A program made the position numbers and the translations under genes. The notes beneath the pieces are model-generated. The model saw only the letters and a list, made by a program, of their open reading frames with translations, was not told the origin of the DNA and did not search any database. A DNA stretch of 9,910 nucleotides, taken from positions 1 to 9,910 of the IMG/VR virus record IMGVR_UViG_2529293139_000004; one strand, given 5' to 3'. Origin of the DNA: a virus. Its lineage: Duplodnaviria; Heunggongvirae; Uroviricota; Caudoviricetes. Positions 1 to 9,910 of the stretch are shown here, piece after piece. Position 1 is the stretch's first letter. Every line of letters starts with the position of its first letter.

Positions 1-124
1 GCTTTTGCCGTTACGCACCACCCCGTCAGTAGCTGAACAGGAGGGACAGCTGATAGAAACAGAAGCCACTGGAGCACCTCAAAAACACCATCATACACTA
101 AATCAGTAAGTTGGCAGCATCACC
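1..124 (-). mobile_element. IS1 insertion sequence, partial (IRL-proximal 124 bp; rest of element lies beyond window start)
   Basis: Reverse complement of 1-124 reads GGTGATGCTGCCAACTTACTGATTTAGTGTATGATGG..., which is the IS1 left terminal inverted repeat plus the insA upstream region as I recall it. Outer end of IRL is at 124. Confidence 0.9.
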
Positions 125-302
125 CTCTGCACGTTGTTGAATACTTGTCATTTTCATCCACTTATTTCAGGCTTATGTAATTGGCGGTGATTCTACAGCA
201 ACTTGGATGCTTTAGCAGTTCGGACATTAGGCTACGAATGACCTGCCTAGAGGTTTGTTAAGACGCAAAGTGCTGGTGCTTTATGCCTGTGAAGTTTATA
301 GT

Positions 303-327
303 TGTGTACACATAACGAGTACACGAG
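303..327. promoter_or_regulatory. phd-doc promoter operator region (palindromic Phd/Doc binding sites)
   Basis: Perfect 10-bp palindrome TGTGTACACA at 303-312 and a related GAGTACAC half-site at 317-324, immediately upstream of the phd SD. Consistent with known autoregulation of the P1 addiction operon. Exact site boundaries not verified. Confidence 0.5.
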
Positions 328-333
328 GTGTTT

Positions 334-555
334 ATGCAATCCATTAACTTCCGTACCGCGCGCGGCAACCTTTCTGAAGTGCTCAACAATGTTGAGGCCG
401 GGGAAGAGGTTGAAATCACCCGCAGAGGCCGTGAGCCAGCAGTAATTGTCAGCAAGGCTACTTTCGAAGCCTACAAAAAAGCGGCGCTGGATGCTGAATT
501 TGCATCTCTGTTTGACACCCTGGACTCCACCAACAAGGAACTGGTTGACCGATAA
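334..555 (+). CDS. phd: Phd antitoxin (prevent-host-death), 73 aa
   Basis: Translation [44 protein letters not shown]... matches P1 Phd from memory. ATG at 334 is preceded by GAGGTG (325-330); the ORF-track start at 328 is an in-frame GTG just upstream. Stop overlaps the doc start (TAATG). Confidence 0.93.
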
Positions 556-935
556 TGAGGCATATATCACCGGAAGAACTGATAGCGCTTCATGATGCGA
601 ATATAAGCCGCTACGGCGGCCTGCCTGGCATGTCAGATCCGGGCAGGGCAGAGGCCATTATCGGGAGAGTTCAGGCCAGAGTTGCCTACGAAGAGATCAC
701 CGACCTTTTCGAAGTCTCCGCCACCTACCTGGTGGCTACAGCGAGAGGGCATATATTCAATGATGCCAATAAGCGTGCCGCGCTAAACAGTGCGCTGTTA
801 TTTCTACGCCGTAACGGGGTGCAGGTATTTGATTCACCTGAACTGGCAGACCTTACCGTAGGGGCTGCGACCGGAGAGATATCTGTATCTTCTGTCGCCG
901 ACACGTTACGTAGATTGTATGGTTCCGCGGAGTAG
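555..935 (+). CDS. doc: Doc toxin (death on curing), Fic-fold kinase, 126 aa
   Basis: 126-aa product with the Fic-type motif HIFNDANKR; sequence matches P1 Doc from memory. Translationally coupled to phd by a 1-nt overlap. Confidence 0.95.
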
Positions 936-939
936 ATTA

Positions 940-1119
940 ATGGCACGTAAATACAACAAATTGTCCCGTGAAGCGTTAAAGATGCTTCTTGATGGCGTGA
1001 GTCGCCGCGAGGTAAAGCAATACCTGGTTGGTAAGCAAATTGGTGCTAGGACCGCTATTGCTGTGTTATGCCGTCAGGAAATGGTTGTGCTTAAACAGAG
1101 AATGCCGGGCAGCAGATAA
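940..1119 (+). CDS. small hypothetical protein (59 aa from ATG 940), immediately downstream of doc; position corresponds to pdcA of P1
   Basis: ORF-track entry 919..1119; the internal ATG at 940 has GGAG about 12 nt upstream. Basic, possibly helix-rich product. No recognisable domain from sequence alone. Confidence 0.4.
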   Translation: MARKYNKLSREALKMLLDGVSRREVKQYLVGKQIGARTAIAVLCRQEMVVLKQRMPGSR

Positions 1120-1146
1120 AGCCCAATCAGTGATGAAAGGTGTGAT

Positions 1147-2190
1147 GTGAAAGCCGTAATTACTCCCTTTGTACAAAAAGAGCTTGGCGTCGCCACATTC
1201 AAAGTGGATCAGGAAGTCAGAAAGCTGGTGGAGGCTGGCCGTAAATTTATTATGGAGCCGGTGCCGCGTGAGTTAATCGAGCACATGGACGACGGCCTCG
1301 TTGTTTCCGAGCAAACTATGGCAACAAATGAGGCGTTGCAGCCGTTTTTTAACAGCGATGAACTGTTTCGCCGTATTGGTGGAATTGACACGCTGGTGGC
1401 GTGGTTGCGCAGGAAAGAGGGGCAATGCCAGGCCGCAGATCGTAGCTGGTGTGACAACCATATTGTCCACGCAGAACGAGACAATAGCGCGGTGTTGTTG
1501 TGCTGGCATCACGATAACCATTACCGGATGCGTGGTTTTAATGAGCTGAAAGAAACGCTGCATAATAATCGCGTTAACTGGATACTGGATGTCGCCCGTC
1601 AGGAAATGGGGCTTTCAGATGGCCATGATCTAAGTATTCAGGAACTGTGCTGGTGGGCTTTCATGCGCAACATGATGCACCGAATGCCGGAAGAAGTTTG
1701 CCGTATATCAATAAATAAGATGAAAGCCGCAACGCAGGATAGCGGACCTCTGAAAGAGGCGGATATTCGCCCGTATAACGATCGCGCTACAGCATATGTT
1801 CAGATGATGGAAGAACGCGCCGCGCCGATGCGTGCAAAAGTATGCCCTGTGGATGTTGACTCCGACCCTGGCATGGCGCATTTCAAAATACCAAAACTGC
1901 AATCGCTAAAATTACCTGAGTACATGGACTTTGTTGCTTCCCGTCCATGCTGTGGGTGTGGAGCGGCGGGAGCTGGCGCTCACATTACGCCTTATATCGT
2001 TCGTCATAGTCGATTATGCGCGCATGACATTTACGCAATTCCTCTGTGCCAGTCATGCCTGCGTGATATTGAGCGTGACCGCGATAATTGGGAGAAGACG
2101 CACGGTAGGCTGGCGATGCATCAACGATTGTTCTTTGATTACGCGCTTGGAGTCGGCGCTATCACAAGTTACTCGTCGAGCGTTATATAA
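1147..2190 (+). CDS. 347-aa Cys/His-rich protein with HNH-like zinc-binding motifs (position and size suggest the P1 pdcB / DUF968-type protein)
   Basis: GTG start at 1147 preceded by AAAGGTG. Long ORF with motifs CWHHDNH and PCCGCG...H...C...PLCQSC typical of HNH/zinc-hook-like nucleases. Assignment to the pdcB/DUF968 family is from memory and not verified. Confidence 0.7.
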
Positions 2191-2191
2191 A

Positions 2192-2233
2192 ATTGCTCTA
2201 ATGTATTGCTATTTCTTTAATCGATGGTATTAT
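2192..2233 (+). promoter_or_regulatory. C1-type operator(s) overlapping a sigma70-like promoter
   Basis: ATTGCTCTAATGTATTG (2192-2208) matches the P1 C1 operator consensus ATTGCTCTAATAAATTT; a second partial match ATTGCTATTTC starts at 2205. -35 TTGCTA (2206-2211) and -10 TATTAT (2228-2233) with 16-nt spacing. Confidence 0.6.
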
Positions 2234-2278
2234 ATTTCACGTTGATTAGTTGACATGGGCTAATCAGTAGGTGACAGG

Positions 2279-2488
2279 ATGTTACTTAACTGGCAGGGAC
2301 GCCACTTCATGGAAATAAATCACTCACGAATAACATCGTACGAGATTGCGGATTACATGATCCGCACTAAATCTCTTCTATCAGCGAAAGAACTCGCAGC
2401 AATTCTTGAAAAGGAATACCCGCATCTGGATGTCGATAACGCCAGCATTTATCAAAATGAAGCTGGCGGAGTACGGCGGGCGCGATAA
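2279..2488 (+). CDS. hypothetical 69-aa ORF with good RBS downstream of the C1-operated promoter; possibly the N-terminal part of a frameshifted lpa-like gene
   Basis: ATG 2279 preceded by AGGTGA. Plausible protein-like translation. Overlaps the 5' end of the KilA-C ORF in another frame. Confidence 0.35.
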   Translation: MLLNWQGRHFMEINHSRITSYEIADYMIRTKSLLSAKELAAILEKEYPHLDVDNASIYQNEAGGVRRAR

Positions 2489-2804
2489 CCCTATGTACAT
2501 GATTAAGGTATCAGTAGCTAAAGGGATCCTGATTGGGAATTTTGCAAAGGTTGTTGGACTTAAGCAAAACGCGCTGTTTGTCTGGTTACGGGAGAACGGC
2601 ATCCTGATAGCGTCCGGTGGACGTAAAAATGTGCCGTTCCAGCAGTACATCAACGCGGGGTATTTCACGGTGAAAGAAGTGGTGCTGGATGATGAAGATG
2701 GCTACCAGATACGGTTGACGCCTCAATTAACGGGTAAAGGCCAGCAGTGGTTGACGCGTAAACTGCTCGATGCTGGCTTGTTAAAACCGGTGGCGGCTGA
2801 ATAA
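2406..2804 (+). CDS. KilA-C (ANT)-domain DNA-binding protein; occupies the position of the late promoter activator (lpa) region of P1
   Basis: Translation contains GNFAKVVGLKQNALFVWLRENGIL...NVPFQQYINAGYFTVKE, which fits the KilA-C/ANT domain pattern. ORF-track start 2406 is TTG; in-frame ATGs at 2430, 2457 and 2493 all lack a convincing SD, so the true start is unresolved. Confidence 0.55.
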   Translation: MKRNTRIWMSITPAFIKMKLAEYGGRDNPMYMIKVSVAKGILIGNFAKVVGLKQNALFVWLRENGILIASGGRKNVPFQQYINAGYFTVKEVVLDDEDGYQIRLTPQLTGKGQQWLTRKLLDAGLLKPVAAE

Positions 2805-2811
2805 TGGAAGA

Positions 2812-2833
2812 ATGCCCGGTTGATGCCGGGCAT
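2812..2833. terminator. hairpin between convergent genes (KilA-C gene and c1), probable bidirectional terminator
   Basis: 8-bp perfect stem ATGCCCGG/CCGGGCAT with 6-nt loop, followed on the plus strand by AATTTATT. Lies 8 nt after the KilA-C ORF stop and directly 3' of the c1 stop. Confidence 0.55.
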
Positions 2834-2836
2834 AAT

Positions 2837-3688
2837 TTATTGCGCGCTTTCGGGGTTGTCGTTTACTGGCTGCCCCTTCTTAGTTTTACGGCTGCGCGTA
2901 ACTGATGCGGCTGATTTGACCTTTTTCTCTTCGCGAGTGATGGCAATTTGTTTTTTTACATTTTCAATATCTGCCAGGCGATATATTTTTGCCTGGGGCC
3001 AGCGGTCGCAGATGATCGGTTCTATGGAGTCATATAGGCTAAATTTTGCTTTTTCGAATTCACCGTTGATGATAATTCCATCACGGAGAGTTTCATCGCA
3101 GATAAACACGCCACATAGTGGCACATGGTAACTCACTGATTTACCATCATTGTAGTTAGGGCTACTGGAAATGTAGTGGACGCGCAGCATTGTTTCGCTA
3201 AAGCCGTGTACGCGCATACGGAATTTTTCATCCTCCGGGTACTGCCTCATTAGCTCTTTTGTTGCTTCCAGGTTCTCTATGTATTTCGCACTGTGCTCAT
3301 TGATCCCCGCGCTTTTTTGGATGCGAATGTCCTTATCAATCAGATGAATAATGCGGCCAGCGGTCATGTTGACGCTGTTTACAGCTTCTGTCTGATAAGT
3401 TGTAACCTTACGTACACCGCGAAGGATGTTAGGCACTGGATATAAAATAGTCTTTGGGATATTGAGGTCTGGGTACTGTTCCAGTTCCCGCGCCATTAAA
3501 GTCCATTTATCAATTTCAGCCTGAATGCTGTCCGTTTCTTTGAACGGCAGAACGACAACCGGGCGAACAGGACGACCGTCGCTGGCGGCATCAACGTGTT
3601 GGGCGCGTGCAACAGCTTTTTTTAGAAAGAGATCCCTGAAGCTGACGAACTCCTGGTACAGTTGTTCGCCGTAGACATAATTTATCAT
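2837..3688 (-). CDS. c1: C1 repressor of lysis/lysogeny, 283 aa
   Basis: 283-aa product starting MINYVYGEQLYQEFVSFRDLF..., matching P1 C1 from memory. Strong SD (GGAGGAGG) upstream on the minus strand. Confidence 0.95.
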   Translation of the reverse strand: MINYVYGEQLYQEFVSFRDLFLKKAVARAQHVDAASDGRPVRPVVVLPFKETDSIQAEIDKWTLMARELEQYPDLNIPKTILYPVPNILRGVRKVTTYQTEAVNSVNMTAGRIIHLIDKDIRIQKSAGINEHSAKYIENLEATKELMRQYPEDEKFRMRVHGFSETMLRVHYISSSPNYNDGKSVSYHVPLCGVFICDETLRDGIIINGEFEKAKFSLYDSIEPIICDRWPQAKIYRLADIENVKKQIAITREEKKVKSAASVTRSRKTKKGQPVNDNPESAQ

Positions 3689-3781
3689 TGATCCTCCTCC
3701 AGAATTGACATGGTCAATAACGCCCGGCTGAGAAAACCGGTCATTACTGACCTATATTATAAAGTGATCAAACAAAAATAA

Positions 3782-3799
3782 TAGATTTATTAGTGCATT
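3782..3799 (-). promoter_or_regulatory. weak C1 operator-like site at the coi/c1 junction
   Basis: Reverse complement TGCACTAATAAATCT matches 13 of 15 positions of the operator core TGCTCTAATAAATTT. Confidence 0.3.
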
Positions 3800-4008
3800 T
3801 ATTGTGAGTCTAACTGGTTAGTTGCCATGAGATATTCGATTGTGTCAGTGAGGTCATCCAGGTCGTCTTGGGTGATGCGGTACTCCTGATTGGATATCTT
3901 TGAGTAGTGTTCAGCAATGGCGCGGGCAGCGTCGGTTTCGGCAGGGTCTACAGATAAAGCGTTAGAGCAATGTCTAACGTCGTCGATGGTTGGTTGAATG
4001 AAAGCCAT
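3799..4008 (-). CDS. coi: Coi (C1 inactivator), 69 aa
   Basis: 69-aa acidic product immediately upstream of c1 on the same strand, with SD TGAGG. Size and position match P1 coi. Confidence 0.88.
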   Translation of the reverse strand: MAFIQPTIDDVRHCSNALSVDPAETDAARAIAEHYSKISNQEYRITQDDLDDLTDTIEYLMATNQLDSQ

Positions 4009-4247
4009 AATTATGCCTCACTGTATTGACAACACAGAGCCTGAAGCTCTGACCTACTGTTTCACCCATGATCCATGCTGGGGTAATCTAACAACATTGC
4101 GCTGTGTGTAAGATGAGCAATGCATAGCTGTAATGCCGTTGTATAAGGTTTCCCTGTTTGCTCATTTCCTTCTGAGCCGCTCTACAACGCTGAAGACACA
4201 TTAAATAGTGAATCCAAAGTCGTATTACGTAACGGCGGCAAAACTAT

Positions 4248-4264
4248 AATTTATTAGAGCAATT
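4248..4264 (-). promoter_or_regulatory. C1 operator (Op99-type), minus orientation
   Basis: Reverse complement AATTGCTCTAATAAATT is a near-perfect match to consensus ATTGCTCTAATAAATTT. Upstream of coi-c1. Confidence 0.65.
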
Positions 4265-4329
4265 GCCAGACAACTATGAAAAACAATCCAGTTTTTAGCT
4301 GGTGGAGTGGGATTTTTCTCTCAAAATTT

Positions 4330-4346
4330 ATTGCTCTAATAATTCT
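4330..4346 (+). promoter_or_regulatory. C1 operator, plus orientation
   Basis: ATTGCTCTAATAATTCT between coi and loxP. Confidence 0.65.
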
Positions 4347-4389
4347 TGATTTTTGTGCATGGCTGGACGTAAACTCCTCTTCGGACCTG

Positions 4390-4423
4390 ATAACTTCGTA
4401 TAGCATACATTATACGAAGTTAT
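4390..4423. other. loxP site-specific recombination site (34 bp)
   Basis: Exact ATAACTTCGTATA-GCATACAT-TATACGAAGTTAT, i.e. canonical loxP written in reverse-complement orientation of the spacer. Confidence 0.97.
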
Positions 4424-4494
4424 CTTAAGGGTTATTGAACATGATCAATTTACCTGTAAATCCATACAGTTCAATACCTTATCAGGTCAAATAG

Positions 4495-4516
4495 TGATCA
4501 CTTGATCATTTGATCA
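4495..4516. promoter_or_regulatory. cluster of three TGATCA (Dam GATC) hexamers at 8-bp spacing in the cre upstream region; likely methylation-sensitive promoter element
   Basis: TGATCA at 4495-4500, 4503-4508 and 4511-4516; a further GATC at 4443. P1 cre promoters are reported to be Dam-regulated (established knowledge, recalled). Confidence 0.5.
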
Positions 4517-4612
4517 AGGTTGCGCTACGTAAAATCTGCGAAATGTTGGCGGTGTTAGTCCTACAGATTTCGCGTAGCGCACTTAGCACCACCAATCAAT
4601 CAGAGGTGAAAA

Positions 4613-4834
4613 ATGGGATATTCAGCTGCTAAAGTGTCCACTCATCTTGAGCTTGAGAAAAACCGTGGTTACTGGCGGGCAAAAGGGTTTGAGCGTGATA
4701 GTTACCAACTGTCATTATCTCGCGGTGAAGAGAAAATAGAACGCACGCGCGGTCGCTGGCGTTTCTATGACGAGAACCATAAACAGGTAAAGGCAGAGCC
4801 GATCCTGTACACTTTACTTAAAACCATTATCTGA
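4613..4834 (+). CDS. hypothetical 73-aa protein encoded between loxP and cre
   Basis: ATG 4613 preceded by strong SD GAGGTG with 4-nt spacer. Charged, protein-like product. Stop at 4832-4834 lies 7 nt before the cre ATG, suggesting translational coupling. Not a gene I know to be annotated in P1. Confidence 0.4.
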   Translation: MGYSAAKVSTHLELEKNRGYWRAKGFERDSYQLSLSRGEEKIERTRGRWRFYDENHKQVKAEPILYTLLKTII

Positions 4835-4841
4835 GTGTTAA

Positions 4842-5873
4842 ATGTCCAATTTACTGACCGTACACCAAAATTTGCCTGCATTACCGGTCGATGCAACGAG
4901 TGATGAGGTTCGCAAGAACCTGATGGACATGTTCAGGGATCGCCAGGCGTTTTCTGAGCATACATGGAAAATGCTTCTGTCCGTTTGCCGGTCGTGGGCG
5001 GCGTGGTGCAAGTTGAATAACCGGAAGTGGTTTCCCGCAGAACCTGAAGATGTTCGCGATTATCTTCTATATCTTCAGGCGCGCGGTCTGGCAGTGAAAA
5101 CTATCCAGCAACATTTGGGCCAGCTAAATATGCTTCATCGTCGGTCCGGCCTGCCACGTCCAAGTGACAGCAATGCTGTTTCACTGGTCATGCGACGGAT
5201 CCGAAAAGAAAACGTTGATGCCGGTGAGCGTGCAAAACAGGCGCTGGCGTTCGAACGCACTGATTTCGACCAGGTTCGTTCACTCATGGAAAATAGCGAT
5301 CGCTGCCAGGATATACGTAATCTGGCATTTCTGGGGATTGCTTATAACACCCTGTTACGTATAGCCGAAATTTCCAGGATCAGGGTTAAAGATATCTCAC
5401 GTACTGACGGTGGGAGAATGTTAATCCATATTGGCAGAACGAAAACGCTGGTTAGCACCGCTGGTGTAGAGAAGGCACTTAGCCTGGGGGTAACTAAACT
5501 GGTTGAGCGATGGATTTCTGTCTCTGGTGTAGCTGATGATCCGAATAACTACCTGTTTTGCCGCGTCAGAAAAAATGGTGTTGCCGCGCCAACATCCACC
5601 AGCCAGCTATCAACTCGCGCCCTGGAAGGGATTTTTGAAGCAACTCACCGATTGATTTACGGGGCAAAAGATGACTCTGGTCAGCGATACCTGGCCTGGT
5701 CTGGACATAGTGCCCGTGTCGGTGCCGCGCGAGATATGGCCCGCGCCGGAGTTTCAATACCGGAGATCATGCAAGCTGGTGGCTGGACCAACGTAAATAT
5801 TGTCATGAACTACATTCGTAACCTGGATAGTGAAACGGGGGCTATGGTGCGCCTGCTGGAAGATGGCAATTAG
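4842..5873 (+). CDS. cre: Cre tyrosine recombinase, 343 aa
   Basis: Translation MSNLLTVHQNLPALPVDATSDEVRKNLMDMFRDRQAFSEHTWKMLLSVCRSWAAWCKLNNRKWFPAEPEDVRDYLLYLQARGLAVKTIQQHLGQLNMLHRRSGLPRPSDSNAVSLVMRRIRKENVDAGERAKQALAFERTDFDQVRSLMENSDRCQDIRNLAFLGIAYNTLLRIAEISRIRVKDISRTDGGRMLIHIGRTKTLVSTAGVEKALSLGVTKLVERWISVSGVADDPNNYLFCRVRKNGVAAPTSTSQLSTRALEGIFEATHRLIYGAKDDSGQRYLAWSGHSARVGAARDMARAGVSIPEIMQAGGWTNVNIVMNYIRNLDSETGAMVRLLEDGN is near-identical to canonical P1 Cre. Confidence 0.97.
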   Translation: MSNLLTVHQNLPALPVDATSDEVRKNLMDMFRDRQAFSEHTWKMLLSVCRSWAAWCKLNNRKWFPAEPEDVRDYLLYLQARGLAVKTIQQHLGQLNMLHRRSGLPRPSDSNAVSLVMRRIRKENVDAGERAKQALAFERTDFDQVRSLMENSDRCQDIRNLAFLGIAYNTLLRIAEISRIRVKDISRTDGGRMLIHIGRTKTLVSTAGVEKALSLGVTKLVERWISVSGVADDPNNYLFCRVRKNGVAAPTSTSQLSTRALEGIFEATHRLIYGAKDDSGQRYLAWSGHSARVGAARDMARAGVSIPEIMQAGGWTNVNIVMNYIRNLDSETGAMVRLLEDGN

Positions 5874-5890
5874 CCGTTCATTTGCGCTTT

Positions 5891-5907
5891 ATTGCTCTAA
5901 TTATTTG
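5891..5907 (+). promoter_or_regulatory. C1 operator between cre and the cra-like ORF
   Basis: ATTGCTCTAATTATTTG matches the C1 operator consensus. Confidence 0.6.
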
Positions 5908-5923
5908 ATATTTATGGTGACGC

Positions 5924-6235
5924 ATGCGGAAGGATTTCAAAATAGACGGAAAATATGTGGTGCTGTCTGTAAGCTCTCAAATTCAGTCACCATCTGTCAT
6001 TGTCACCGTAAAGTTTAGCGATAGGATGCCTGATATCGACTCGATATCTGTTGCGTTCCCCGTTAAAAACATGCGGAGTGCTGAACATTTTGTGATGAAT
6101 GCAACGGAGGAGGAAGCGCGGCGCGGGCTTACTAGAGTGATGGTGGAATTTGGCGAACTCCTGGGTAAGGTAAACAATGCCCTTTCAATCAGTTCAGCAA
6201 GATCCAAAGCGTTAACAGCTTCCATGATGAAATAA
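5924..6235 (+). CDS. hypothetical 103-aa protein in the position of cra (cre-associated) of P1
   Basis: ATG 5924 with GGTGA upstream; sits between cre and ref as cra does in P1. Identity to Cra is inferred from synteny only. Confidence 0.55.
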   Translation: MRKDFKIDGKYVVLSVSSQIQSPSVIVTVKFSDRMPDIDSISVAFPVKNMRSAEHFVMNATEEEARRGLTRVMVEFGELLGKVNNALSISSARSKALTASMMK

Positions 6236-6238
6236 AAA

Positions 6239-6259
6239 AGCCTGGCAAGGAGCCAGGCT
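6239..6259. terminator. GC-rich hairpin after the cra-like ORF; U-tract is on the minus-strand side
   Basis: Stem GCCTGGC/GCCAGGC with 5-nt loop, flanked by A6 on the plus-strand 5' side (T-run if read on the minus strand). Orientation of function ambiguous. Confidence 0.4.
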
Positions 6260-6364
6260 GCACAAAAGAGCGGGTTTGTATTCCGCACCAATCAATCAAG
6301 AAGGAGTATAGCACACAGGTACTGAAGTGAAAAAATGTGATTCGCGAGAAACAAAATATCTACT

Positions 6365-6388
6365 ATTGCTCTAATTGATTGCTATAAT
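6365..6388 (+). promoter_or_regulatory. C1 operator overlapping an extended -10 promoter upstream of ref (Op2-like)
   Basis: ATTGCTCTAATTGATTG (6365-6381) followed by TGcTATAAT (6380-6388). P1 ref is known to be C1-controlled. Confidence 0.6.
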
Positions 6389-6447
6389 TTAGCCGCAGTT
6401 TTTGTCAACTACGAAGACGTTGCCATTACTTCACTCCTTGACATCAT

Positions 6448-6473
6448 AGGCGGCCATTAGGCCGCCTTTTTTT
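6448..6473 (+). terminator. rho-independent terminator-like hairpin immediately upstream of the ref start codon
   Basis: Stem AGGCGGCC/GGCCGCCT, 4-nt loop ATTA, followed by T7 (6467-6473). The ref ATG is at 6480. Confidence 0.55.
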
Positions 6474-6479
6474 GACCAT

Positions 6480-7040
6480 ATGAAAACAATCGAACAAAAA
6501 CTTGAACAGCGCCGCGAGTGGCAGAAGGCAGCCAGAGAACGAGCGATCGCTCGGCAACGGGAAAAGTTGGCTGACCCCGCCTGGCGAGAATCGCAATATC
6601 AGAAAATGCGGGATTCTATCGACCGCCGTATCGCTAAACAGAAAGAGTGCCCACCAGCCAGCAAAACGCGGAAAAGTGCGGTAAAAATAAAATCTCGTGG
6701 CTTGAAGGGACGAACACCGACGGCAGAGGAACGGCACATAGCCAATGCTCTTGGCGCTCTCCCCTGCATTGCGTGCTATATGCATGGAGTAATATCTGAA
6801 GAGGTGTCTCTGCACCATATTTCCGGTCGTACCGCGCCTGGTTGTCACAAAAAGCAATTGCCACTTTGTAGATGGCACCACCAGCATGCAGCACCGGCTG
6901 AAGTAAGAGCAAAATACCCCTGGCTGGTCCCTGTTCATGCCGATGGAGTGGTTGGAGGCAAGAAAGAATTCACCCTGCTGAACAAGTCAGAGATGGAGTT
7001 ACTGGCTGACGCCTATGAGATGGAAACTTTATTAGTCTAA
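6480..7040 (+). CDS. ref: Ref, RecA-dependent HNH endonuclease (recombination enhancement function), 186 aa
   Basis: 186-aa product with basic N-terminus and the HNH core (...CRWHHQH...); matches size and sequence character of P1 Ref. Confidence 0.92.
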   Translation: MKTIEQKLEQRREWQKAARERAIARQREKLADPAWRESQYQKMRDSIDRRIAKQKECPPASKTRKSAVKIKSRGLKGRTPTAEERHIANALGALPCIACYMHGVISEEVSLHHISGRTAPGCHKKQLPLCRWHHQHAAPAEVRAKYPWLVPVHADGVVGGKKEFTLLNKSEMELLADAYEMETLLV

Positions 7041-7108
7041 TATATTTATTATTTCTGTTTTTATTAAAACTGAGTTTCTCTGTTATTATCGAGAGTAGTT
7101 CTTCGTAT

Positions 7109-7876
7109 ATGGAGCATAAGCCAAATATGACAACGCACAAAATCCCAAAAAAATTTTGGGACAAAAAGATGGTTGAATGGCCATGTCCTAATTGCGGGCA
7201 AAAAACCCTGAGAATTTTAGACGAATCTTTCATCTGTAAGGACACTGCTGAAACTATCAAAATGCAGGCTGAGGAATGGTTTGACTTAGAGTATACAAGC
7301 TCGGTATTCAGTTGCATGTCACAGTGCGTAAGACCTCAATGTAAGGAGGTAGTGGCATGCACAGGCAGAAGTGGTCTAGAAGAAGATTGGGCCGAGCATA
7401 CAGGACTTTATTACTATCGCTGGTATGAACCATTAAGTTTTACTCCTGGGTTAAAGCTCTTTCTTATCCCGAACATGTGCCCTGAAGACATAGCCTTGCC
7501 TATAAACACCTCGTTTGCACTAAGCACAATCCATCCAGGTGCCGCTGCAAATCTAATAAGAACATCTGTAGAACGATTACTTACAGCTATCGGGGTAACG
7601 GAAACAAACGAAAAAGGGAATAGAATTAACCTCCATAATAGGATTGAGATGATCCCTAGTGAACATTCTGGCTTTAAAAGCCTGTTATTTGCGATTAAGT
7701 TTCTTGGAAATGCGGGTAGCCACCGCTATGAAAACGTTACCGCTGATGACTTGGATAACTCATACGAGATCATGAATTTTATTCTAAGAGATTTATATTC
7801 GGATAATCGCAAAAAGGTTAGTGAGTTAGCTAATAATCTAGACAAAAAATTTAATCCTCAAAAACAAAAAGGTTGA
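7109..7876 (+). CDS. 255-aa protein: N-terminal Cys-rich zinc-ribbon-like region plus C-terminal DUF4145-like helical domain; candidate accessory/defense gene
   Basis: CPNCGQ...C...CMSQCVRPQCKEVVAC in the N-terminal half. C-terminal AAANLIRTSVERLL...FAIKFLGNAGSH...YEIMNFILRDLY fits the DUF4145 pattern as I recall it. Gene is visibly AT-rich compared with flanking P1 core genes. Confidence 0.75.
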   Translation: MEHKPNMTTHKIPKKFWDKKMVEWPCPNCGQKTLRILDESFICKDTAETIKMQAEEWFDLEYTSSVFSCMSQCVRPQCKEVVACTGRSGLEEDWAEHTGLYYYRWYEPLSFTPGLKLFLIPNMCPEDIALPINTSFALSTIHPGAAANLIRTSVERLLTAIGVTETNEKGNRINLHNRIEMIPSEHSGFKSLLFAIKFLGNAGSHRYENVTADDLDNSYEIMNFILRDLYSDNRKKVSELANNLDKKFNPQKQKG

Positions 7877-7995
7877 CATCTGACAAGTGACTTCAGTCAG
7901 AATCATCACACGCCCGGTACGGATGGATCCCTTTTCAAATATTCCATGGACGGCACAGTCTGAGTACCGGGCGCTACCTTCCGTTGTATTGCTAA

Positions 7996-8020
7996 GCCGC
8001 CGCTGGTGGCTTTCTTTTTT
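7996..8020 (+). terminator. rho-independent terminator-like hairpin 12 nt upstream of the next start codon
   Basis: GCCGCC-GCT-GGTGGC (one G-U pair) followed by TTTCTTTTTT (8011-8020). Confidence 0.5.
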
Positions 8021-8031
8021 GTAGGGGCGCT

Positions 8032-8673
8032 ATGGATAAGAAAATATGCGTTGTTTCAATGAGCGTCGGCAAACCGGCGTCAATGACTGCTGCATGGATC
8101 AATAATGAGCTGATAATGGCTGAGCGGACCAGCTACCCTGAACGCCGCCGCGATATGGAACTCCAGCTGCTGCGCGAATTGCGAGAAAAAGAGGAAAAGA
8201 GTTTTATCGTGCTGGTGGAAGAGGAAAACAGCTTTATTACGGGTCGAGTTGGCCAGCGTGTAAGGTTGCGCGATCCCTTCATGAACGGCAGGCCGGTACT
8301 AATTGAAGCAATGCAGATTTACAAGGAGCTGGAACGCCAGAAAGCAATCAAGTTACCGCGCAAGGAATCCGGCAAATACATCCTCCACCAAAGCATCTTC
8401 GATTCCGAACACGATAAAAAAGGCGATGAATTTTTCAACATCAACTGGAGCGAAATAACGACAGAGCATGTTCTGACGTTACTATGTTGCTTTGTGACGG
8501 AATACAACAACGTTGCCAGCGCCGACTACATCAGGGCAATGGCTGGAGAAGTTGAGGCCCGCCAAGAACCATCGTTACTAAGTCCACTGATTAACATAAT
8601 TCTGGGCACCCAGATACTGGAACAAAAAAAAGTGCCGAAAGGGGTATTAACAGGCAAGCATAATTATTTTTAA
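8032..8673 (+). CDS. hypothetical 213-aa protein with no domain I can recognise
   Basis: ATG 8032 preceded by AGGGG. Long ORF with GC content typical of the P1 backbone, flanked by AT-rich genes. May be a core phage gene (mat-like position) or a partner of neighbouring genes. Confidence 0.7.
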   Translation: MDKKICVVSMSVGKPASMTAAWINNELIMAERTSYPERRRDMELQLLRELREKEEKSFIVLVEEENSFITGRVGQRVRLRDPFMNGRPVLIEAMQIYKELERQKAIKLPRKESGKYILHQSIFDSEHDKKGDEFFNINWSEITTEHVLTLLCCFVTEYNNVASADYIRAMAGEVEARQEPSLLSPLINIILGTQILEQKKVPKGVLTGKHNYF

Positions 8674-8766
8674 CAATTATATACAGTAATTTTGTGGTTA
8701 CATTCTCCATTGATTTTCTAACCGCTTTATCATTAGATGTAACAGCATGTAAATCATTTAAAATGG

Positions 8767-9657
8767 ATGAAAGCAATGGGGAATGAAGTTTATCAAAGTC
8801 AAAAATGCAAGTTGAAATATTCAAAATCTCAAATTGATAGGGCTGCTCAATTGATAAGGCACGGGTGTAGTGACGAAGAAAGGCAGCAATCTATTGAAAT
8901 GATACAAAATTTCCGTGAGCTGCATCTTTATCCATTAATGCTCATGAAAAATCATTTAGCAAGAGCAGCTGCTAAGGTTGACAAAGACAAAAAGATTCTC
9001 GTTGCAAGAAGACTTAAGCGACTTTCTACCATAATAGATAAACTAGAGCGTCCTAGTCTTGATGGAGGCAGAACTAGCAATGCAATTAAATTAACACGGA
9101 TGCAGGACGTTGGCGGATGTAGGGCCATTGTCAGAAACTTAGACCAGTTGATACAGCTAAAGGAACGTCTTTTAAAAAGCAAATCTGTTCATAGGATTGT
9201 TAAAGAGTATGATTATCTTACTCCCAAAGACAGCGGCTATAGTGGAATCCACCTTGCATACAGTTGCTTCGATCAGAAAGAGGATCAATATCCGTGGCGA
9301 AAAACAAAGATTGAGATACAGTTAAGAACTCAATTGCAGCATGCTTGGGCTACTAGCCTTGAAATAATTGATACCCTTGAAGGTATCAAGCTGAAAACTT
9401 CAAGTGAAGGGCATCCAGAATGGAGACGATTTTTCTATCTAGCCGGATGTCTTGTAGCGCACGACGAAAAAGCCTGCACTCTTGATGAGCTAGTTGTATC
9501 TCAGTATGAAGGCGAGCTTAAAGAGCTGGAACGGACTTTATCTGTACGGAGGAAACTAAGCACATACACCATCGCCGGTAGTGACTCCAACTTACTGATA
9601 GTGTTTTATGTTCAGATAATGCCCGATGACCTTGTCATGCAGCTCCACCGATTTTGA
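8767..9657 (+). CDS. RelA/SpoT-family nucleotidyltransferase (toxSAS/CapRel-like), 3' end interrupted by IS1: native codons 1-270 (8767-9576), then 26 IS1-derived codons
   Basis: Synthetase-domain motifs [33 protein letters not shown] and [13 protein letters not shown]. The IS1 IRR begins at 9577 inside the reading frame, so the last 26 aa and the stop are IS1 sequence. Confidence 0.8.
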
Positions 9658-9910
9658 GAACGACAGTGACTTCCGTCCCAGCCTTGCCAGATGTTGTCTC
9701 AGATTCAGATTATGTCGCTCAATGCGCTGAGTGTAACGCTTGCTGATAACGTGCAGCTTTCCCTTCAGGCGTGATTCATACAGCGGCCAGCCATCCGTCA
9801 TCCATACCACGACCTCAAAGGCCGACAGCAGGCTCAGAAGACGCGCCAGTGTGGCCAGAGTGCGTTCACCGAAAACGTGCGCCACAACTAGTCCTCCGTA
9901 TCCTGTCATA
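9577..9910 (-). mobile_element. IS1 insertion sequence, partial (IRR and 3' part of insB; continues beyond window end)
   Basis: GGTAGTGACTCCAACTTACTGAT at 9577-9599 is an IS1 right inverted repeat variant; the downstream sequence encodes the InsB C-terminus on the minus strand. Confidence 0.9.
9592..9910 (-). CDS. insB: IS1 transposase InsB, C-terminal portion (N-terminus beyond window)
   Basis: Minus-strand translation ...[98 protein letters not shown] matches IS1 InsB; stop codon lies within the IRR. Confidence 0.88.

Follow-up and report, generated by a model that had tools for sequence, protein, structure and literature searches.

The stretch of DNA analysed here (9,910 nt; hereafter the window) comes from a phage P1-like Escherichia coli plasmid. 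Positions 1900–2442 share 97–98% identity with the pdcB-lpa region of P1/P7, and positions 2507–3100 match the ant-c1 region of RCS47 at 98.8%. The P1 segment (125–9576) is flanked by two copies of IS1 in the same orientation (window positions 1–124 and 9577–9910), an arrangement that looks like a composite, translocatable unit. The right-hand IS1 is only 93% identical to the left-end copy, and truncates a gene for a RelA/SpoT-domain protein (ORF 8767–9657). This gene is the last of an accessory trio downstream of ref, the other two members of which encode a DUF4145 protein (7109–7876) and a hypothetical protein (8032–8673). The trio could represent a defence module of the toxic small-alarmone-synthetase type, here disrupted by IS1.

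Genes and signals between pdcB and c1

The region from pdcB to the convergent c1 repressor gene contains the following features, in window coordinates:

1147–2190, plus strand: pdcB (DUF968/HNH), intact and directly before lpa as in P1; collinear with P1 pdcB at 96–98% identity, and annotated by PGAP as a DUF968 protein in plasmids with identical sequence
2192–2208, plus strand: Olpa, a C1 operator (formerly Op94), ATTGCTCTAATGTATTG; 17 of 17 bases agree with the annotated P1 Olpa
2206–2233, plus strand: Plpa, a sigma-70 promoter with a −35 box TTGCTA (2206–2211) and a −10 box TATTAT (2228–2233); the same as in the P1 annotation, and also found by a consensus scan
2269–2274, plus strand: AGGTGA Shine-Dalgarno sequence before the lpa′ start codon (ATG 2279)
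2279–2439, plus strand: lpa′, the late promoter activator gene up to its nt 161 (53 codons); 98.5% identity to RCS47 and 96–98% to P1
2437–2439: junction J1, where lpa nt 159–161 are joined to pacB nt 689–691 with TAA microhomology, from a three-way alignment of the window, lpa and pacB
2437–2510, plus strand: ′pacB′, an internal 74-bp fragment of the pacase gene (nt 689–762, PacB aa 231–254); 98.6% identity to pacB of RCS47 and pGZM7b
2440–2488, plus strand: 16 out-of-frame codons and a TAA stop that close the 69-aa Lpa′ chimera, as translated
2507–2510: junction J2, where pacB nt 759–762 are joined to ant nt 816–819 with GGTA microhomology, from a three-way alignment; also present without J1 in three metagenome contigs (L029–L031)
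2507–2804, plus strand: ′ant, the 3′-end of the antirepressor gene (aa 274–370) with an N-terminally truncated KilAC domain; 98–99% identity to ant of RCS47 and pGZM7b, with 96 of 97 amino acids identical
2812–2833, plus strand: terminator-like hairpin between ant and the convergent c1
2837–3688, minus strand: c1, the intact repressor gene (283 aa), from the ORF list; annotated by PGAP as ‘phage repressor protein C1’ in plasmids with the same junction

A sigma-70-like match on the minus strand (2256–2229; ATGTCA, 16 nt, TATAAT; 10 of 12 positions) overlaps the Plpa leader and is directed back towards pdcB.

The initial annotation had described a C1 operator and promoter (2192–2233) and a ribosome binding site leading into a 69-aa ORF (2279–2488). 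All of these are present, and the Olpa and Plpa boxes are identical to those of P1. The first 53 aa of the ORF are those of P1 Lpa, and are followed by the 16 out-of-frame codons from the pacB fragment. The position of this ORF directly after pdcB and behind a C1-controlled operator and promoter is that of lpa, but its product falls short of a full-length Lpa (approximately 150 aa, with a 131-position domain), since the sequence departs from lpa after codon 53. The Pfam profile BPP1_LPA (PF25716) is matched over its positions 1–45 of 131 only. With the domain cut at this point, late-activator function should be lost.

The second ORF (2406–2804) lies in a different frame (2279 mod 3 = 2; 2406 mod 3 = 0). 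It matches Pfam ANT/KilAC (PF03374) with 87 bits (gathering cut-off 25.3; E = 1.4e-24), over positions 20–106 of 108 only. Within it, PacB residues 231–254 (TPAFIKMKLAEYGGRDNPMYMIKV) and Ant residues 274–370 are read in a single frame. The product lacks what a complete Ant of the RCS47 and pGZM7b type possesses, namely its own start, an ORF6N-containing N-terminal part and a length of 370–371 aa. A KilA-C-like domain without a convincing start had also been noted initially, and this description is borne out: no well-spaced Shine-Dalgarno sequence was found before the candidate starts in the KilAC frame (TTG 2406 and ATG 2430, 2457, 2493 and 2499). One of these, ATG 2493, begins only 4 nt past the lpa′ stop codon, and weak translational re-initiation into the KilAC remnant may therefore occur there. 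Both ORFs are most likely non-functional by-products, and both are probably silent.

Two deletions and their order

The region was aligned with RCS47, P1 and the close intact relative pGZM7b. Window positions 1890–2439, 2437–2510 and 2507–3800 correspond to three separated stretches in RCS47, and likewise in pGZM7b, at 97–99.6% identity and without internal gaps. These three collinear blocks account for the whole region with nothing remaining, and overlap only by the TAA at 2437–2439 and the GGTA at 2507–2510. Relative to pGZM7b, 2,259 bp are missing at J1 and 2,115 bp at J2. The deletions took out pacA with its pac site, icd and a small ash-like ORF completely, and removed two-thirds of lpa from its 3′ side, 95% of pacB and codons 1–273 of ant. 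In intact relatives, the antirepressor gene (370–371 aa) is a separate gene, located approximately 3.3 kb downstream of the end of lpa.

The order of the two events is indicated by proteins related to the second ORF. Its 90% identity cluster includes a 351-aa protein that is exactly PacB(1–254) fused to Ant(274–370). This fusion is encoded on the three metagenome contigs mentioned above, which carry an identical J2 but no J1, and have intact lpa (150 aa) and pacA (397 aa) genes. As these contigs carry J2 alone, J2 preceded J1. With J2 formed first and in frame, the common reading frame of the pacB fragment and the ant tail is also accounted for, without any appeal to selection.

The locus is also widespread. 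A 401-bp stretch covering both junctions is found with 100% identity in 22 complete PLSDB plasmids and in 22 complete E. coli plasmid records of RefSeq, where a 23rd record reaches 99.5%. The carrier plasmids range from 78 to 272 kb, and come from many hosts and countries, with sources including humans, poultry, pigs, flies, a frog, coriander and sewage. The exact 69-aa product is encoded on 806 contigs, and a 124-aa form of the second ORF on 759. PGAP annotates lpa′ as ‘Late promoter-activating protein, incomplete, missing C-terminus’ and ′ant as ‘phage antirepressor KilAC domain-containing protein, incomplete, missing N-terminus’; both pieces are pseudogenes in RefSeq.

The locus thus bears the marks of a deletion remnant: collinear flanks, missing internal segments, junctions with short microhomology, an observed intermediate and ‘incomplete; partial’ PGAP flags. 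We therefore read it as a two-step deletion scar in a P1-derived plasmid, with a probability of roughly 95%. The ancestor would have been of the RCS47/pGZM7b type, with the gene order pdcB, Olpa/Plpa-lpa, pacA (containing pac), pacB, ash-like ORF, icd and ant, followed by c1 on the opposite strand. A first deletion of 2,115 bp, from pacB nt 762 to ant nt 816 at GGTA, would have generated J2 and, by chance, the in-frame fusion PacB(1–254)::Ant(274–370). A second deletion of 2,259 bp, from lpa nt 161 to pacB nt 689 at TAA, would then have generated J1. In the resulting state, the intact, C1-repressed lpa promoter and its ribosome binding site would drive a 69-aa peptide consisting of Lpa(1–53) and a nonsense tail, and a start-less PacB(231–254)-Ant(274–370) remnant lies behind the lpa′ ORF in another frame. 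Transcription from Plpa would remain repressed by C1 and would extend to the hairpin terminator at 2812–2833, so that the KilAC remnant would be ‘C1-operated’ by accident only.

The initial annotation had offered other explanations for the two frames, the main one being that mutation or sequencing error had introduced a +1 frameshift into a single lpa-like gene whose C-terminal part is a KilAC domain. The two ORFs do overlap in adjacent frames, and a promoter, an operator and a ribosome binding site precede only the first. Alignment to lpa homologues upholds one part of this proposal, as the 5′ ORF is indeed lpa under its C1 operator, cut at codon 53 and flagged by PGAP as a pseudogene. The same alignment overturns the frameshift itself: there is no indel in 2406–2488, where the sequence instead leaves lpa at nt 161 (J1), continues as 74 bp of pacB and passes into ant at J2. 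Nor was a KilAC domain ever part of lpa, since intact Lpa proteins of P1, RCS47 and pGZM7b are 150 aa long and lack it, and the full-length Ant (371 aa) carries it together with ORF6N; the KilAC segment is the 3′-end of this separate gene. The change of frame reflects the accidental joining of three gene fragments. The two findings named initially as refuting a frameshift, homologues with the same two-ORF arrangement and conserved independent starts or a full-length match to a protein starting at 2457, were not obtained; it is the alignment to lpa homologues, proposed initially as the check, on which the frameshift fails. Sequencing error is excluded by the presence of the same sequence in 22–23 finished plasmids and approximately 800 contigs. 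A single frameshifted gene is accordingly extremely unlikely. Even less credit can be given to programmed ribosomal frameshifting that would carry translation out of the lpa frame and into that of KilAC, which we regard as vanishingly improbable. In its favour, the frames overlap over 2406–2488, but a search of the lpa frame for an X XXY YYZ slippery heptamer found none, and the overlap owes its existence to a deletion junction seen neither in intact relatives nor in the J2-only intermediate. Homologues keep the two frames in separate, distant genes, and in other deletion alleles lpa is joined to unrelated sequences in any frame.

More can be said for two functional overlapping genes, encoding a C1-controlled Lpa N-terminal peptide and a KilAC mini-protein. 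The former might, for example, act as a dominant-negative block on the late transcription of superinfecting P1, while the latter could be translated by termination-reinitiation at ATG 2493 or from ATG 2430. The operator, promoter and ribosome binding site are perfectly kept, ATG 2493 follows the lpa′ stop by 4 nt, the allele is very widespread, and the first 34–66 codons of lpa are retained in most of the independent deletion alleles described below. However, approximately 19 profile positions are missing from the beginning of the KilAC domain, Ant has lost its entire N-terminal part with ORF6N, and none of the starts in the KilAC frame has a usable Shine-Dalgarno sequence. The tails behind the Lpa fragment differ completely between alleles, and as all copies of the present allele are identical, they provide no signal of selection. 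A mutational hot spot at exact nucleotides, and not selection at the protein level, accounts for the retention of the 5′-end of lpa. We consider a pair of working genes very unlikely, and a function for either ORF is similarly improbable.

The two-step deletion scar is ordinary prophage decay at a locus already annotated as a pseudogene, for which the present analysis gives the junctions at single-base resolution and the order of the deletions. The locus is best labelled as lpa′, ′pacB′ and ′ant fragments; it is neither a recoding site nor a new KilAC gene under C1 control.

Recurrent lpa-pacAB loss and TA junctions

A search with a scar-spanning query brought up many further P1-like plasmids with pdcB/lpa within approximately 1–2.5 kb of c1, and more alleles were collected from truncated-Lpa proteins of the same cluster. 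Among approximately 730 complete E. coli genomes containing P1-like sequence, at least 60 show such a short distance between pdcB/lpa and c1. Loci with recurrent loss include pMRE162 (L004), from the aerosol laboratory strain MRE162, and L005, L008–L015, L018 and L019, and two IS-mediated alleles (IS1 and IS5) are also present. Seventeen IS-free junctions, representing 14 independent alleles, were mapped against pGZM7b (positions 2155–7061); besides the window, they come from L004, L005, L008–L013, L018, L019, L021, L023, L024 and L026. The lpa-pacAB region has therefore been deleted independently at least 14 times, that is, at least 13 times besides the allele in the window.

The dinucleotide TA is common to both parents at 14 of the 17 junctions, compared with 6.5% expected. 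The overlaps are TA (nine junctions), TAA (two), GGTA, GTAC and CGCTTAA (one each) and AC (one), and two junctions have none. Random junctions in the same interval have microhomology of at least 2 nt in 16% of cases, and TA in 6.5% of those. Individual sites are used repeatedly. The TA at lpa nt 182–183 has been fused to seven distinct downstream sites, in pacA (near nt 795 and at nt 1175), pacB (nt 662 and nt 1251), icd (nt 15) and ant (nt 400 and nt 1012), and lpa nt 140 and ant nt 80 have each been used twice. The TA of J1 (lpa nt 159–160) and the hot spot at nt 182–183 form the two outer ends of an imperfect palindrome, TAAGCGCGAT-GTTT-ATC(T)GCGCTTA (pGZM7b 2313–2337). For local hairpin stability, lpa nt 159–183 ranks in the top 2–5% of the 250 TA sites of the interval. 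This applies to the lpa nt 161/183 pair only, and over all 20 used TA sites hairpin enrichment is not significant (Mann-Whitney p = 0.19). When sites are oriented by the side that was lost, the deleted-side flanks are enriched for TA-CCCG; C, for example, is found at +3 in 12 of 20 sites, where the background is 0.28.

Many short-read contigs stop at or just past lpa nt 183. A 61-aa Lpa fragment (P0014) is listed in 93 index blocks, all with contigs of 10 kb or less; the gene reaches the contig end in the single contig that was read.

Several known activities were considered as the source of these junctions and rejected. Cre acting at pseudo-lox sites is not favoured, as arm matches at the used sites (3–8 of 26) are no better than those at 250 background TA sites (mean 6.8). 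No EcoP1I type III recognition sequence (AGACC/GGTCT) lies within 45 bp of the 12 sites examined. Pacase cutting at the annotated P1 pac is 2-nt staggered, but occurs at GT and GC and not at TA. The cix core recognised by Cin (AAACC-TT/AA-GGTTT) is unlike the used sites. The published motif of gyrase/Topo IV (−4G/−2A/−1T, 4-bp stagger, +5A/+6T/+8C) puts no TA at the join. The boundary between P1-type and RCS47-type elements, in which the ant module is absent or present, was also examined and is not a clean TA deletion. A literature search for TA-specific deletion junctions in E. coli plasmids returned nothing relevant.

Formally, the TA pattern resembles either cut-and-rejoin with a 2-bp stagger, or template switching at a structure-arrested fork, and it is recorded here as unexplained. 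That the 14 or more lpa-pacAB-ant deletions were made by a TA-specific break-and-rejoin or template-switch process, and not by generic microhomology, is a tentative proposal, and we would place the odds somewhat against it. If it is true, it would point to a previously unrecognised activity behind the conversion of P1 phage-plasmids into plain plasmids, for which the candidates would be a 2-bp-stagger recombinase or transposase-like enzyme, or hairpin-arrested replication. Should the TA and hot-spot pattern hold, it would provide a concrete, testable handle on how phage-plasmids become plasmids, and it is the only part of this analysis that may be of specialist interest.

Comparison with P1, RCS47-type elements and P1-derived plasmids

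The 5′ part of the locus corresponds to P1 lpa (gene 10) with Olpa/Plpa. The operator, −35 and −10 boxes, ribosome binding site and position after pdcB are the same, and the first 53 codons match completely or almost completely, whereas only 161 of the 453 nt of lpa are left in the window. Of the P1 packaging functions, the 74 bp of pacB survive, but pacA, pac and 95% of pacB do not. The 3′ part corresponds to the icd-ant (immI-like) module of RCS47, pTZ20_1P and pGZM7b-type elements. Identity to this module is 98–99% over the final 97 codons of ant and the ant-c1 terminator region, which keep their position and orientation relative to c1, whereas the module's ash-like ORF, icd, C1-operator-like sequence and ant codons 1–273 (ORF6N and the start of KilAC) have been deleted. 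In RCS47-type elements, the ant module is located between pacB and c1 (PMC6906374). In pGZM7b, a C1-operator-like sequence (ATTTGCTCTAATGAATT; 5372–5392), which is deleted in the window, precedes the ash/icd/ant module just after the pacB stop codon. The presence of this sequence is why the second antirepressor module beside c1 appears to be under C1 control in intact relatives.

The sister plasmid pEC1515-2 (92 kb), which has the same junction, was inspected in full. Its P1 parts consist only of repA-parAB and phd-doc-pdcAB-lpa′-′ant-c1-coi-cre-ref, and the remainder is made up of IS elements, a class 1 integron, tet(A), IncHI-type transfer remnants and other cargo. No P1 head, tail or lysis (morphogenesis) genes were found in the inspected sequence. 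Retention of P1 replication, partition and immunity genes with loss of phage genes is thus observed in pEC1515-2, and in the 9.9-kb window the loss of lpa, pacA and pacB is seen directly. A GIY-YIG nuclease gene (8247–9056) is located between parA and repA of the P1-type replicon in pEC1515-2.

In P1, Lpa is needed for the activity of late promoters, and PacAB together with pac is needed for packaging. From this biology, loss of lpa, pacA/pacB and pac alone should abolish phage production: without Lpa there would be no late promoter activity, and without PacA, PacB and pac no packaging, so that the element would be trapped in the plasmid state. The lineage of P1-derived resistance plasmids that carries the scar is very successful (approximately 800 contigs) and is expected to be incapable of late-gene activation and DNA packaging, which matters for the question of whether such ‘phage-plasmids’ can still spread resistance by lysogenisation.

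P1-like phage-plasmids are known to have turned into plasmids by gene loss (Pfeifer and Rocha, 2024; PMC10879196). That study works on gene repertoires, whereas the present analysis resolves base-level junctions, the order of events and a TA/hot-spot pattern, none of which was found in the literature searched. The sister plasmid pEC1515-2 shows the course described there, in that the P1 replicon and immunity region have been kept, phage functions lost and resistance genes gained.
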